From Dehalococcoidia bacterium (lineage in GTDB: Bacteria; Chloroflexota; Dehalococcoidia; UBA2979), in NCBI GenBank assembly GCA_964291495.2, contig OZ219871.1, positions 1,440,001 to 1,504,000 of the forward strand: a stretch of DNA of 64,000 nt, read 5' to 3'. The position numbers were made by a program, and so were the translations under genes. This document shows positions 38,369 through 43,251 of this stretch, one piece after another. How positions within the stretch are numbered: the first letter of the stretch is position 1; each line of letters starts with the position of its first letter. The notes under the pieces were generated by a model. That model had not been told where the DNA came from, searched no databases, and was given only the letters and a program-made list of their open reading frames with translations.

Positions 38369-40819
38369 CTATTCGAGCACCCCCGCCTCCTCGAGCCGCC
38401 GCACCTCCGCCTCGGACATGCCGAGGTACTCGCCGAGCACCTCGACGTTGTGCGCGCCGAAGACGGGCGAGGGCAGGCGCAGGCTGGGCGGGGCCTCGGA
38501 GAGGCTCCAGGCGTTGCCGTTGAGCAGCTCACCGGCGGGGTAGTCCGCGTGGAGCACGAAGCGTTGGCGCCGCTCGGCGAGGTGGGGGTCCGTGATCGCC
38601 TCGGTGGCGTCGAGGACGGGGAACGCCGGCACGCCGTTTGCCTGCAGGGCTTCCGCCAGCTCGCGCTTGTCGTGCGAGGCCGTCCAGTCGTTGATCTCGC
38701 GGTCCAGCTCCGTGCGCGCCGCGATCCGCCCCTCTCGCGTCGCGAAGTCCTCACGCGCGAGCCAGCCCTCTCGGCGAGCGAAGCGGGCGAGTGCGCGCCA
38801 CTCGCCCTCCTCGCCGCAGGCGATGGCGATCCACTGGTCCTCGCCGGCGCAGCGGTAGATGCCGTGCGGCGCGTAGTAGCGGTGCGAGTTGCCGACGGGG
38901 CCGGTGTCGCGGCCGTTCCAGCTGTAGTCGATCACCGCCTCGGCAAGACCCGCGAAGCCCGCCTCGCCCTGCGCCAGCTCGATGAACTGGCCGCGCCCGG
39001 TGCGGGAGCGCGAGGCGAGCGCGGCGAGGATCGCGAGCGTCCCGTAGGCGGAGGCGATCGGGTCCAGCTCGGCCGCTTCTTCCATCACCTGCCCGTCCTC
39101 CGGGTAGCCGTTCAGGCTCTTCATCCCGAACAGCGCCGCCAGCGACGGCCCGTAGGTGATCAGGTCCGCCCATGGCCCGTCGAGGCCCGCCGAGGGCATC
39201 GCCAGCATGATCAGCCGCGGGTGCTCGGCCGTCAGGCGGGCGTAGTCGACGCCGAACGAGCGCATCACCCTCGGTGCGTAGTTGTCGACCACCACGTCGA
39301 CGACGCCGCAGAGCCGCTCGAACAGCTCGAGGCCGTCGGGCGTCGTGAGATCGAGGGCGATCGATCGGCGGTTGCGCAGGATCCACTCCCAGGCGAGCGG
39401 CTCTGCCGGATCGAAGCTGCCGGGCACGCCGGAGCCCCAGGGGCGCTTCGTCGTCTGCACCTTCACCACGTCCGCGCCGTAGTCGGCGAGGTAGCGGCTG
39501 ACGAGCGGCCCCGCCCAGACCTGGCCGAGGTCGAGCACGCGCAGCCCGGCGAGCGGGCCGTCGGCGGGATCGGCCGCGCCCGGGAAGTCCGAGGCGGCGG
39601 CCGGTCGCCAGGCATCTGCGCGCGCGGGTGGCCGAGGCGGCGCCGTCCAGCCCTCGGCGTTCGGCTCGTCGAGGCGTGGCGGCGAGCCGGGCGGGATCCA
39701 GGGCGTCCCGGCCATGCGGTAGGGCGCGCCGGGGACGCGCGGCGGCGGCTCGACTCCCGGCGCCTCGACGAGCAGGCCGCGCTCGGCGGCGTAGTCCGAC
39801 TCGCAGACCTCGGGGACGGTGAGCACGGGCTGGAAGGGGATGCGCTCGCGGCGGGTGATCTCCCACAGCTCGGTCTTCGTCAACCGCGCGAGGTGCGCGA
39901 CCATCTCGCCGCGCAGCACGCGCTGCACCCGTTCCGCCTGGTCCGGATCGAGGTTGCGGCGGACCTGCGCCTCGCCGAGGCCTCGGATCAGCTCGTCGCG
40001 CGCCCACTCCGGGTTGCCGAGGCCGTCGAGGAACGCGGTCCAGTGCCGCCCCATGTGCGTCATCGTCGAGAGGTGGCCGTCCTTGACGGGGTAGACGCCC
40101 CAGACGCCGCCGCTCAGGTTCTGCCCGTTGCGCTGCGGGATTGCCTGGCCGAGGTAGGCGACCTGCGGGATGCCGTGCCCCCAGACCGCAACGTTGACCG
40201 CCTCGAGCGCGCTGATGTCGACGAACTGCCCGCGCCCGATGCGGTCGCGGTGGTGCAGCGCGATCAGCGTCGCCAGCGCCGCCTGCACCCCGGCGTGCTG
40301 CACGTCGGCGGCGTCGAGCGGTGCGGTCAGCGGCTCGCGCTGCGGGTCGCCGAGGCGGTAGGCGACGCCCGCGCCGCAGTAGGCGAGCAGTGGCGCGCCC
40401 TTCCACCCGGCGTAGGGCCCGCTGTGCCCGAAGGTGGTGACGGCCGTCAGCACCAGACCCGGATGCGCCTCGCGCAGCCGCGCCTCGTCGAGGCCCAGCG
40501 CCCGCGCCTCCCGCGGGTGGAAGGAGTGCAGCAGCACGTCGGCGTCGGCGAGCAGCGCCTCGAGGGCGGCGCGGCCGTCCTCGCTCGCCAGGTCGAGGCG
40601 CGCGCCGGCCTTGCCGCCGTTGAGATAGACGAACTGGCCGCTGTGCTCGCGGTCGCGCTCAGCAGCGGGGAAGGGGCCGTGCTCGCGGATCGCGTCGCCC
40701 TCGGGCGGCTCGATCTTGATGACGGTGGCGCCGAGGTCGCGCAGCAGCTTGCCCGCGTAGGCGATGGCCTTGCCTCCGCCGGCCTCGACGATGCGCAGGC
40801 CGGCGGAGGCGCCTGTCAT
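38369..40819 (-). CDS. Double-domain CaiB/BaiF CoA-transferase
   Basis: LRDLGATVIKIEPP and LADYGADVVKV repeats; 816 aa. Confidence 0.92.
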   Translation of the reverse strand: MTGASAGLRIVEAGGGKAIAYAGKLLRDLGATVIKIEPPEGDAIREHGPFPAAERDREHSGQFVYLNGGKAGARLDLASEDGRAALEALLADADVLLHSFHPREARALGLDEARLREAHPGLVLTAVTTFGHSGPYAGWKGAPLLAYCGAGVAYRLGDPQREPLTAPLDAADVQHAGVQAALATLIALHHRDRIGRGQFVDISALEAVNVAVWGHGIPQVAYLGQAIPQRNGQNLSGGVWGVYPVKDGHLSTMTHMGRHWTAFLDGLGNPEWARDELIRGLGEAQVRRNLDPDQAERVQRVLRGEMVAHLARLTKTELWEITRRERIPFQPVLTVPEVCESDYAAERGLLVEAPGVEPPPRVPGAPYRMAGTPWIPPGSPPRLDEPNAEGWTAPPRPPARADAWRPAAASDFPGAADPADGPLAGLRVLDLGQVWAGPLVSRYLADYGADVVKVQTTKRPWGSGVPGSFDPAEPLAWEWILRNRRSIALDLTTPDGLELFERLCGVVDVVVDNYAPRVMRSFGVDYARLTAEHPRLIMLAMPSAGLDGPWADLITYGPSLAALFGMKSLNGYPEDGQVMEEAAELDPIASAYGTLAILAALASRSRTGRGQFIELAQGEAGFAGLAEAVIDYSWNGRDTGPVGNSHRYYAPHGIYRCAGEDQWIAIACGEEGEWRALARFARREGWLAREDFATREGRIAARTELDREINDWTASHDKRELAEALQANGVPAFPVLDATEAITDPHLAERRQRFVLHADYPAGELLNGNAWSLSEAPPSLRLPSPVFGAHNVEVLGEYLGMSEAEVRRLEEAGVLE

Positions 40820-40880
40820 TGCGGCCGTACCCGGTCCCGCCTGGCCGTCCGAATCGGCCCCGGCTGTGCGCGCGTCGCCC

Positions 40881-42209
40881 TCAGTTCATATCCGCGAACA
40901 TCGGGTCGTCGTCGACCGAGTACTCGTAGGGCTTGAGCTCCTCGGGCGGGGTCGTGGCGAGGCTGATCGGCACGTCGACCTCGAAGGGGCCCTTGAGGTC
41001 GAGCTCCTCGGCCATCTCGCGCATGGCGGGGATGACGTGCTTCCCGATCAGCTCGATGTTGCGCATGTTGTCGCGGTGGCTGATGTGGCCGTCGGTGGCG
41101 TAGAAGCTGACGATGCCGGGCCGCGTCTGCTCGAGGACCTTGCGCAGCTGCGCGATCGCGTGGTCCGGGTCGCCCATGATCCAGGTCAGGTCGTCGAGGT
41201 GCTTCTGCAGCGTGGCCCCGGTGTCGGCGCCGCCGCCGGCGGAGCGCAGCCCCTTGGCGCCGGCGCGCTGGTTGTTGCGGGCCACGGCGCCGCGCCGCCT
41301 GGCGAGCGCGGCCGGCGAGTCCGGCGCGCCCCAGAGGTAGCCCGAGGGCGAGCTCCAGACCGGGTGGCCGAGGCCGGTGAACTCGCCCGCCATCCACATG
41401 AACTCGCGCGCGTTGCGCATCGCGTGCTCCATCGTGTCCTGCACGTGGAAGTGGATGGTCTGGCCGAAGTTCCAGGTGCCGACCTCGTAGCCCTTCTCGG
41501 CGGCGACCTCCTTGTAGGTGCCCATGATCCGCTTCTGCGCGCGCTCGTCCGTGCCGAGACCGATGTAGGGGTAGCGGTGCGCCGCCGCCCACTGCACGGT
41601 CTCGAGGCTCGACGTGCCGGGCACCCAGATGCGCGGGTGCGGCTTCTGCATCGGCAGCGCCCATGGGTTGACGACGCGGAAGTGGTACTGGTCGCCTTCC
41701 CAGCGGAACGGTCCGGGCGTGGTCCAGGTCTTGATGATCAGGTCGTGCGCCTCCTCGAGGCGGTCACGGTTGTAGGCGGGGTTGGCGTTCATCGCGAACT
41801 GCTCGGTGCCGCCGCCACGGATCAGGCCGGGCACGAGGCGACCCTGCGAGATCATGTCGATCATGCCGAGCTCCTCGGCGGTGGCGACGGGGTTGTCGCG
41901 CAGCGGCAGCGGCACGCCGAGCAGCACGATCTTCACGTTGTTGGTGACGGCCGCGAGGATCGAGGCCCAGATCTGGATTTGCGGCTGCATGCAGAACGGC
42001 GCGTTGTGGTGCTCGTTGAGCATGATGCCGTCGAAGCCGACCTCGTCGACGAGCTGGTACTCGGCGAGGCGGTCCTGGTAGATCTGGCTGCCCGCATCGG
42101 AGTCGTAGAACTCGTTGGAAAAGCGCAGCACGGTCAGGCCGTCGCGCTTGCGGGCCTCCTCCTCCGGATAGGCGGACATCGGCTGCTCGGTGAAGTACAT
42201 GATGAACAT
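40881..42209 (-). CDS. LLM-class flavin-dependent oxidoreductase
   Basis: GFDGIMLNEHH, AEELGMIDMISQGR and PMQKPHPRIW. Confidence 0.92.
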   Translation of the reverse strand: MFIMYFTEQPMSAYPEEEARKRDGLTVLRFSNEFYDSDAGSQIYQDRLAEYQLVDEVGFDGIMLNEHHNAPFCMQPQIQIWASILAAVTNNVKIVLLGVPLPLRDNPVATAEELGMIDMISQGRLVPGLIRGGGTEQFAMNANPAYNRDRLEEAHDLIIKTWTTPGPFRWEGDQYHFRVVNPWALPMQKPHPRIWVPGTSSLETVQWAAAHRYPYIGLGTDERAQKRIMGTYKEVAAEKGYEVGTWNFGQTIHFHVQDTMEHAMRNAREFMWMAGEFTGLGHPVWSSPSGYLWGAPDSPAALARRRGAVARNNQRAGAKGLRSAGGGADTGATLQKHLDDLTWIMGDPDHAIAQLRKVLEQTRPGIVSFYATDGHISHRDNMRNIELIGKHVIPAMREMAEELDLKGPFEVDVPISLATTPPEELKPYEYSVDDDPMFADMN

Positions 42210-42365
42210 CGGCGGTTCCCCGTTCGGTGCTCGCAGCGCGCCGCTCCGGCGCATCCGGGGGAGCATACCAGCACAACGCCTTTCGATCGGCGATGCCGGA
42301 GCGGCCGAGGTGGTGAAGCGTCCCTCGCGCGGTACCCTTCCTACGGACGCGATTCGGGGTGCGGT

Positions 42366-42632
42366 GTGTCGAAGGTCTGGCAGGGGGTGCGCCGAGCCGT
42401 CGTCGACCTACTCGTGGGCTTTCGCACCACCTACCTCAACTTCCGCAACTACGATGCGCCGCTGTCGGTGAAGTGGCGGCTCGTCTGGCGTAACAACTGG
42501 ATCAAGGCGCGCACCTTCTCCCTGTGCTGCGGCAACCTCGGCGAGCCCGGCTGCTGACGGGACGTCGAGGAGCCCCGTGAGGGCTCGGAAGACCACCACC
42601 ACGATCATCCGGACCACCCGCACCACCACTAG
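42366..42632 (+). CDS. Putative small selenoprotein copy 1 (CCGNLGEPGC-U plus His-rich tail; in-frame TGA at 42555-42557)
   Basis: 63 codons to the TGA, then RDVEEPREGSEDHHHDHPDHPHHH-TAG; paralogous to the next gene. Confidence 0.75.
42570..42586 (+). promoter_or_regulatory. Candidate bacterial SECIS hairpin
   Basis: GAGCCC-CGTGA-GGGCTC starts 12 nt after the TGA; loop follows 18 nt after it with G at loop position 2. Confidence 0.7.
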
Positions 42633-42695
42633 CGACGCCGAATCCGGGGGTCGAGGCGCTACCCTGTAGGGGCGAGGGCCGACCGGAGGTACCGC

Positions 42696-42953
42696 GTGCT
42701 GAACCCCTGGCGTTGGCTACGCCGCCTCGTCGCCGGCACCGTGAGGAGTTGGCGCACGACGTACGTCAACTTCCGCGACTACGACGCGCCGTTCCTCGTG
42801 AAGGTCGGCCTCTTCGCCCGCAACAAGTGGACGATGGCGCGCACGCTCTCGATGTGCTGCGGCAACCTCGGCGAGCCCGGCTGCTGAAGCGACTCCGGCG
42901 AGCCCCGTGAGGGCTCGGAGCACCACCACCACGACCATTCGCACCCGCACTAG
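42696..42953 (+). CDS. Putative small selenoprotein copy 2 (in-frame TGA at 42885-42887)
   Basis: GGAGG RBS; 63 codons ending CCGNLGEPGC, TGA, then SDSGEPREGSEHHHHDHSHPH-TAG. Confidence 0.78.
42900..42916 (+). promoter_or_regulatory. Candidate bacterial SECIS hairpin
   Basis: Identical GAGCCC-CGTGA-GGGCTC, again 12 nt after the TGA; extendable by CTCC/GGAG pairing. Confidence 0.7.
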
Positions 42954-42972
42954 CCCGCGCTGGCGCGCGGCG

Positions 42973-43158
42973 CCCCGCACCCCCACCCTCTCCCGCGAGG
43001 GGAGAGGGGGCCGGATCCCCTCCCCGTCATTCCGGCAAAGAGCCGGAATCCAGTTGGCCCGCCGGCCTGGCTGCCGCCTCGCTGGGTCGGCGCCCTCGGA
43101 AGCTCCGGCGTGCGCCTCCCTCACCCCCACCCTCTCCCTCGGGGGGAGAGGGGGCCGG
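42973..43158. repeat. REP cluster (two CCCTCTCCC..GGGAGAGGG units and one CGTCATTCCGGC unit)
   Basis: Units at about 42973-43017, 43025-43053 and 43118-43158, in the same order as the 36315-36525 cluster. Confidence 0.88.
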
Positions 43159-43251
43159 AGGGTGCCTCGCGCCGGCACGCCGTGTGGCAGCGGCGGCTGG
43201 GGTCGTGTAGCGTCCGCTCGCGCCCGATCGCGCGCATCGAGGGGGTACGAG

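Follow-up and report, generated by a model that had tools for sequence, protein, structure and literature searches.

Two tandem genes of a Dehalococcoidia bacterium are probable members of an undescribed family of small selenoproteins

Among the proteins described earlier that bear some likeness to those reported here, the high-Mr thioredoxin reductase carries a flexible C-terminal Gly-Cys-Sec-Gly tail (Sec or U, selenocysteine) in which the vicinal Cys-Sec can form a selenenylsulfide, and the nickel/zinc metallochaperones HypB, UreE, SlyD and CooJ possess His-rich tails. The discovery of bacterial selenoproteins relies on plentiful Cys homologues; the unnamed families GOS_A to GOS_C, as presented in PMC2398784, have 125-312 of them each. 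Table 1 of a 2026 review of the prokaryotic selenoproteome (PMC13188914) lists 119 families or subfamilies, each under a domain identifier from Pfam, NCBIfam or another source, and GOS_B and GOS_C now have NCBIfam models there. BSepDB, by its own description (PMC13326102), compiles previously reported families only, and it places the Dehalococcoidia selenoproteomes among the richest. Here we describe two small genes in a 64,000-nucleotide (nt) stretch of DNA (the window; contig OZ219871.1 of assembly GCA_964291495.2, positions 1,440,001 to 1,504,000) from a Dehalococcoidia bacterium of the phylum Chloroflexota. The two open reading frames (ORFs) are very probably tandem paralogues within a family of small bacterial selenoproteins that is widespread yet undescribed and is decoded through a selenocysteine insertion sequence (SECIS). 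The family is a new one within a known kind, that of bacterial selenoproteins decoded via an in-frame SECIS.

The KCU-star/DUF466 family (YbdD/YjiX; PF04328, NF033934) is likewise small (Pfam model of 61 positions), has no assigned function, carries Cys-Sec in its C-terminal region (motif CU in Table 1 of PMC13188914) and is usually truncated in databases. The window family differs from it in lacking any hidden Markov model (HMM) similarity, in having a tail of 3 to more than 80 residues after Sec and an invariant CC seven residues upstream, and in its occurrence in Chloroflexota and Actinomycetota; a six-frame search of the whole genome with PF04328 gave 0 matches, with a positive E. coli control. 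The UGSC family (NF041046), which is present in the same genome, uses a SECIS of the same design (a stem of 6-8 bp, rich in G+C, that begins 11-13 nt after the UGA, and a GUG loop) but is an unrelated protein with Sec in a mid-protein UGSC motif and an existing NCBIfam model. With the thioredoxin reductase tail the window family shares a flexible C-terminal ...G-C-U motif, yet it has no flavoprotein disulfide reductase domain, amounts to only 85-88 amino acids (aa) in all without a Pfam match, contains a second vicinal pair CC, and is bacterial with the SECIS inside the coding region. The Cys-Sec dipeptide is also found in SaoC (NF040734), MbdU (NF045648), SaoL and HgcA of Haft and co-workers; Table 1 of PMC13188914 calls MbdU a metal-binding selenoprotein, and SaoL and HgcA are assigned to organometallic and mercury biochemistry (same table; bioRxiv 10.1101/2022.07.06.499078). 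Unlike these, the window family gave no HMM match to them and has no conserved Sao-type or mercury gene neighbourhood; a search of the genome with NF040734 was also without a match, a weak negative, as the control gave none either. A Cys motif plus a flexible His/Asp/Glu-rich tail is held in common with HypB, UreE, SlyD and CooJ, but the GTPase, peptidyl-prolyl isomerase or other chaperone domain is missing, part of the family can do without the tail, and no hydrogenase, urease or carbon monoxide dehydrogenase genes were found next to the loci examined. Scans of both window proteins and ten relatives, Cys forms included, against Pfam and NCBIfam release 20.0 at E <= 1 returned only two chance-level matches (E ~0.3), in agreement with the original prediction, made from the sequence of the window, which had recognised no named family. 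Full-text searches of the literature on selenoproteins of SAR202, Dehalococcoidia and Chloroflexi and on new selenoprotein families, supplementary tables (which may list it) apart, found no account of the family.

On re-reading the sequence we found the predicted arrangement to be exact: two paralogous ORFs of 63 codons, with starts exactly 330 bp apart, both end in CCGNLGEPGC followed by TGA, beyond which the frame remains open for 24 codons in copy 1 (RDVEEPREGSEDHHHDHPDHPHHH) and 21 codons in copy 2 (SDSGEPREGSEHHHHDHSHPH) before a TAG codon, and the identical hairpin GAGCCC-CGTGA-GGGCTC lies 12 nt past each TGA although the spacers have diverged (Table 1). The reading frame of copy 2 contains one in-frame TGA, and the two proteins are 62% identical. 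The GTG start of copy 1 (VSKVW...) aligns with the ATG start of an orthologue (MAKAW..., locus L026; such labels with L or G are our own for loci and genomes). The frame of copy 1 is also open for 597 codons upstream (40764-42557, plus strand), antisense to a luciferase-like oxidoreductase gene (40881-42266, minus strand); this long open frame is an artefact of high G+C content that yields no long protein, and, judging by the alignment with relatives, the GTG at 42366 is the real start.

Table 1. Coordinates, within the window, of the tandem genes and their proposed decoding elements
Feature	Position	Strand	Details
Gene copy 1 (88-aa selenoprotein if read through)	42366..42632	+	GTG start, 63 codons, Sec-UGA, 24-codon tail, TAG (42630-42632)
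Gene copy 2 (85-aa selenoprotein if read through)	42696..42953	+	GTG start, 63 codons, Sec-UGA, 21-codon tail, TAG (42951-42953)
UGA of copy 1, read as selenocysteine	42555..42557	+	aligned TGA in 34/34 and 83/84 homologous genes
UGA of copy 2, read as selenocysteine	42885..42887	+	conserved aligned TGA
Bacterial SECIS-like hairpin, copy 1	42570..42586	+	6-bp stem GAGCCC (42570-75)/GGGCUC (42581-86), loop CGUGA (42576-80)
Bacterial SECIS-like hairpin, copy 2	42899..42917	+	7-bp stem CGAGCCC/GGGCUCG; arms 42900-05 and 42911-16, loop CGUGA 42906-10; added C-G pair 42899/42917
Tail coding region of copy 1 (RDVEEPREGSEDHHHDHPDHPHHH), overlapping the hairpin	42558..42629	+	translation, frame-specific His
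Shine-Dalgarno-like GGAGG, 6 nt 5' of the copy 2 GTG	42685..42689	+	read from sequence

In the mechanism that we propose, the UGA after ...CCGNLGEPGC would be decoded as selenocysteine by SelB and tRNA-Sec, which a short G+C-rich hairpin lying 11-15 nt further on, with GU in its apical loop, would recruit; translation would then continue through the hairpin into a variable tail, usually rich in His, Asp, Glu and Pro, to give products of 88 and 85 aa instead of the 63 aa reported by gene callers. The protein is predicted to have a pair of basic helices at the N-terminus and, C-terminal to them, a flexible loop in which the vicinal pairs CC and CU, seven residues apart, would form a Cys3Sec tetrad. 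Judged from their sequences, both genes are almost certainly genuine selenoprotein genes, and the reading of UGA as selenocysteine put forward in the original prediction is supported by the selenocysteine machinery of the genome, the conservation of the UGA, the covariation of the hairpin and the Cys forms, as described below; all the computational checks suggested with that prediction turned out in its favour.

A scan for the pattern CCG[NH]xG[EQ]PGC in one genome per species, with the next codon left unconstrained, gave at least 600 stretches, at least 476 of them confirmed. A tabulation of the codon that follows ...PGC, proposed with the original prediction as a check, gave TGA for 117 and Cys for one of the 118 homologous genes, which come from two phyla. 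TGA occupied this place in all 34 genes of one set (loci L021-L052), in which the final stops were TAG (19), TAA (8) and TGA (7), and in 83 of the 84 genes of a second set (L053-L132, from the pattern scan), the other being the Cys form L095, with final stops TGA (38), TAG (37) and TAA (9). If TGA were a true stop, the product would be a 63-aa peptide ending ...GEPGC, the tail would not be made and the hairpin would be an element of mRNA stability, processing or termination; we regard this explanation as very improbable, and a site that is TGA-only, bar one Cys, while the final stops mix TGA, TAG and TAA speaks against it. That the genetic code is an alternative one, in which TGA encodes an amino acid, was considered and rejected because TGA also closes 38 of the 84 family genes of the second set. 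Of the best 80 loci, all but one labelled as metagenome-assembled genomes (MAGs), 45 belong to Chloroflexota (Dehalococcoidia, Anaerolineae, Chloroflexia, Tepidiformaceae and Thermoflexus), 33 to Actinomycetota (Acidimicrobiia, Thermoleophilia and "Actinomycetes"), one to a Hyphomicrobiales MAG and one is unclassified. A six-frame search that read through stops found a family match in 156 of 401 genomes of a class sample, with TGA in all match rows but four among the matches listed, and the family is near-universal in some lineages (24/25 genomes of f23 and 9/10 of genus g1).

A database search with one protein returned five relatives of 59-63 aa. Four of them are 63 aa long and stop at the Cys that precedes the TGA; the only one with an informative source name comes from a Chloroflexi MAG, where it is called a "hypothetical protein". 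When 1.84 billion cluster representatives were searched with a profile, 468 matched at E <= 0.001, and the names in the cluster look-up offered nothing beyond "hypothetical protein". Among 155 database proteins (the five relatives and the best 150 of the 468 representatives), 140 stop exactly at the Cys before the TGA, which is the annotation truncation that had been foreseen for a selenocysteine codon and is also what gene callers would report at a true stop. Seven others continue with Cys and a tail, e.g. ...GEPGC-C-ISSGSHASGDAHPHDHQH, and most of these tails, the long ones usually, bear His. The finding of Cys homologues that run in frame into such tails, a substitution which the original prediction had named as a point to look for, argues against termination at this site. 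Four proteins have W after ...PGC, which we take to be TGA translated as Trp by the gene caller, and three are without the motif; one (P0082) has Arg in place of Sec or Cys at the critical position. Further Cys forms are L095, L140, L141, L148, L150 and L151, some of them ending CCE or CCD. The family is about 90-95% in the Sec form and very short, which may be why it has remained truncated and unnamed though widespread.

The hairpins of the two copies were compared with the published model of the bacterial SECIS (bSECIS), which according to section 5 of PMC13188914 has a 3-9-nt loop, a 4-16-bp stem, G in the first two loop positions, a distance of 16-37 nt from UGA to loop and a minimum free energy of -7.5 kcal/mol or lower. 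Both satisfy it, with the loop CGUGA, stems of 6 bp (copy 1) and 7 bp (copy 2, lengthened by one C-G pair), 18 nt from UGA to apical loop in either copy and hairpin-only energies of -9.8 and -12.2 kcal/mol; the 12-nt spacer between TGA and stem differs in sequence. In an alignment of 108 distinct TGA-downstream sequences of family members, all four constraints hold for 94 versus 171 of 2160 mononucleotide shuffles, and most of the 14 failures fall narrowly short on the energy threshold. Changes on both sides of the stem were found in 8 of 8 tested pairs (at pair 26-40, for instance, 44 sequences have AU, 33 have CG and 19 have GC), paired cells make up 80.9% against 65.8% in the shuffles, none of 500 shuffles attains the observed value on any covariation measure, and all measures drop when the 3' arm is slid. 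At least 90% of the sequences share the loop G and U; the apical loops are CGUGA (36), GUC (20), GUU (19), GUG (9), CGUGC (6) and less frequent variants. Over the hairpin, the encoded peptide varies with the stem (EPREGSE, EPGAGS, ERLGQS, PSGSEG, PPREGG and others), and the EPREGSE-type peptide after Sec is dictated by the RNA hairpin, not by the protein. The hairpin is retained 3' of the final stop in L125, whose frame closes after three codons; in L126 it is retained with the loop UGA as the in-frame stop, and in L144-L146 it follows a four-codon tail and a second TGA. The hairpin is a constraint at the RNA level. No hairpin was found in a scan 3' of the Cys codon of the Cys form L095, and a promoter and terminator scan yielded 0 sites, the hairpins having no U-tract and not being terminator-like; both results are at odds with a stop-associated mRNA element.

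Translation past the UGA is indicated by the composition of the tails. His makes up 17.7% of residues in the frame-0 tails versus 1.3% and 1.0% in the other two frames, and 57 of 108 tails contain three or more His; this frame-specific enrichment would not be expected if the tail were not made. The natural Cys-form tails, on which no SECIS constraint is expected, are mostly His-bearing as well, and since Cys forms carry tails, the region past the U position is translated. The His-rich tail claimed for the two copies is present in both and common in the family, but it is not essential: the shortest tails have 3 codons and the longest more than 80, and in some lineages the protein ends in CU-ETSK, CCE or CCD.

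The genome (assembly of 3.08 Mb, 93.7% complete) was searched for the selenocysteine machinery, the presence of which was the first check proposed for the pair, and selA (523.6 bits), selB (301.7 bits), selD (368.3 bits) and tRNA-Sec (77 bits) were all found above curated cut-offs. The selD gene itself has one in-frame TGA, and a hairpin GCGCAG-GUG-CUGCGC is located ~27 nt 3' of it. A whole-genome scan for TGA in a coding-like frame that precedes a G+C-rich hairpin whose loop contains GU gave 22 candidates, among them copy 2, fdhA, four UGSC-family genes and two thiolase-domain genes. In fdhA (L133; TIGR01591, 653.7 bits, ...CNRT-U-HAPS...) the spacer is 11 nt, the stem 8 bp and the loop GUC, and the four UGSC-family genes (L134-L137; NF041046) have spacers of 11-13 nt, stems of 6-8 bp and the loop GUG, so that these genes use one common SECIS style of an 11-13-nt spacer and a GUN triloop. 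The window hairpins match those of fdhA and the UGSC genes in position, size and loop signature, as a comparison within the genome had been expected to reveal, and a resemblance to SECIS elements of the same genome is difficult to reconcile with a mere stop codon. The two thiolase-domain genes (L138, G000 C5:687169-688416; L139, C5:1035172-1036407) contain an in-frame TGA 18 codons before the end (...LCLVNG-U-GG...), across which the alignment with NCBIfam PRK06158 extends to the end of the profile, and a 9-bp hairpin with a GUU loop 28 nt 3' of the TGA. Among 31 thiolase relatives there are many paralogues with one TGA and others with none. Thiolase is listed neither in Table 1 of PMC13188914 nor in the text of BSepDB, and the two genes may represent a second undescribed selenoprotein family.

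When selA was searched in the same 401 genomes of the class sample and cross-tabulated with the family matches, 140 genomes had both, 16 had the family without selA, 161 (one of them, G244, unpublished) had selA without the family, and 84 had neither. Five of the 16 carry Cys forms, ending CCE or CCD in two (G266, G011) and CCE in three (G097, G352, G388), and have neither selA nor selB over the cut-off; such an occurrence of Cys forms where selA and selB are missing is again contrary to a true stop. One (G053) has variants ending GGCE and GYCE. Three with TGA forms (G071, G052, G385) and G017, whose family match carries one TGA, have no selA match but selB over the cut-off, and the missing selA is probably an assembly gap. 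The matches of G304 (L149) and G017 (L154) showed no motif by regular expression, and those of four others (G018, G040, G106, G107) are weak (E 0.002-0.004).

Several observations weigh against decoding of the UGA as selenocysteine. The last of the 16 genomes (G365, locus L152), 98% complete, has a TGA form with a hairpin and no selA or selB over the cut-off was found in it, as would fit a true stop; it is an exception without explanation. The genome of the Cys form L095 (G409) has selA, therefore the Cys form is not confined to genomes lacking selenocysteine, and the sampled genomes are related, so that the counts are not independent and the raw numbers overstate the evidence. An Rfam scan of 42300-43000 found no SECIS or other relevant family, its sole row being a chance match to a CRISPR repeat (E = 5.5), and the folds of the whole 56-nt segments are unexceptional (z = -0.46 and -0.58), a point in favour of termination. 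Open frames are common in this GC-rich DNA, and the +1 frame is in fact open longer after the TGA (median 49 codons versus 18), for which reason frame openness is uninformative here. One sponge metatranscriptome contained contigs of a relative over 42200-42558 and none over 42572-42943; the library may contain DNA, and these contigs, at most a weak sign of transcription in a relative, establish neither transcription nor its absence. Finally, it is from sequence that we infer selenocysteine insertion and the read-through peptide.

Decoding of selenocysteine is not fully efficient and depends on selenium supply. Termination at the UGA might then serve a purpose of its own, as the original prediction had suggested, with selenium supply deciding how much tail-less Cys3 peptide is made relative to full-length Cys3Sec protein. 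This special case of selenocysteine decoding agrees with the position of Sec near the C-terminus, where the truncated product would retain both helices and three of the four ligands, but many members have very short tails (CU-ETSK; three codons in L125) or are Cys forms ending CCE/CCD, so that a general switch cannot have the tail as its purpose, and we consider it quite unlikely.

The small size, the tandem duplication and the Cys-rich C-terminal part of the proteins might also suggest precursor peptides of a ribosomally made, modified natural product, with the Cys/Sec-rich C-terminus as core and the helices as leader, and selenobacteriocin precursors are listed as a selenoprotein family in Table 1 of PMC13188914. 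Such an origin is hardly credible in view of the gene neighbourhoods, in which no conserved maturase-type gene and no conserved small partner ORF was found (the apparent small-ORF clusters are alternative frames of the family gene) and the commonest neighbours are leuD, leuC, leuB, CoA-transferase, alcohol dehydrogenase and luciferase-like oxidoreductase genes. The N-terminal helices, moreover, are conserved as strongly as the C-terminal motif, and near-universality in some lineages, f23 and g1 above, fits a housekeeping role, not a natural product.

Turning to the selenoprotein that we propose, the invariant or near-invariant residues are N25, P32, K36, N43, W45 and the block C54-C55-G56-x2-G59-x-P61-G62-C63-U64. 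AlphaFold2 with a 120-row alignment predicted helices at 2-28 and 33-50, with no structure in the Cys/Sec loop or the tail (mean predicted local distance difference test score 66.9); a homodimer prediction on a natural Cys form scored 0.01, which is no answer and counts neither for nor against binding. An Aconitase_C (leuD-type) gene lies directly upstream on the same strand in 22 of 110 loci, with an Aconitase (leuC-type) gene nearby in 18 and an Iso_dh (leuB-type) gene in 15. In many Chloroflexota the family gene comes right after leuD in a leuC-leuD-X-leuB block. Other groups of loci adjoin genes for class I fumarase, malate dehydrogenase, undecaprenyl diphosphate synthase or flavin reductase-rubredoxin (in one Actinomycetota group the family gene follows the class I fumarase gene), and in the window genus the neighbours are luciferase-like oxidoreductase, zinc alcohol dehydrogenase and CoA-transferase genes. 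Isopropylmalate isomerase (leuCD) and class I fumarase are [4Fe-4S] hydro-lyases; in the leuC-leuD-X-leuB block the family protein could, in a reading that is unlikely as a whole, serve or protect the labile [4Fe-4S] isopropylmalate isomerase. The linkage to leuD and fumarase could be mere synteny.

Two vicinal chalcogen pairs, seven residues apart in a Gly/Pro-rich loop and usually followed by a His/acid-rich tail, point to a site for thiophilic metals, and our first, tentative proposal, to which we give somewhat less than an even chance, is that the protein may bind and hand off a thiophilic metal ion with the help of the His-rich tail. By analogy with the GCUG tail of thioredoxin reductase, a disulfide/selenenylsulfide redox relay is possible but more doubtful. 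That the protein might be a selenium-dependent chaperone or sensor for soft metals (or related to Fe-S), with Cys3Sec presented on a two-helix stalk and the ratio of isoforms coupling selenium to metal homeostasis, is unlikely; if true, selenium supply would set the ratio of the two isoforms, since Sec lies just before a dispensable tail. To be set against all three is the outcome of the searches: no universal or conserved partner gene emerged from the neighbourhood analysis, and the sequence and structure searches gave no homologue, the PDB profile search returning a chance match only (E = 0.86) and the ESM Atlas only unnamed Chloroflexota/Actinomycetota clusters (scores 0.84), with structure rows below the useful bar. 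A search for longer fused forms found none, which is weak evidence. Because the neighbourhoods are lineage-specific and no relative, fusion or small partner ORF was found, the function has to be inferred, and the proposals above follow the logic of the motif alone.

Naming the family would correct hundreds of annotations and enlarge the Dehalococcoidia selenoproteomes, and its compact natural Cys3Sec motif would offer a model in which to study the preference for selenium over sulfur at what is probably a metal or redox site. Just 3' of copy 2, at 42973-43067, the window contains a palindromic G+C-rich element (CCCTCTCCC...GGGAGAGGG), of which a second copy is found near 43120-43160. In metagenome assemblies the summed contig depth over the element at 42973-43067 reaches 2879 versus ~6 in its flanks, and it is adjoined there by many different sequences; it looks like a repeat of the repetitive extragenic palindromic (REP) or miniature inverted-repeat transposable element (MITE) type.

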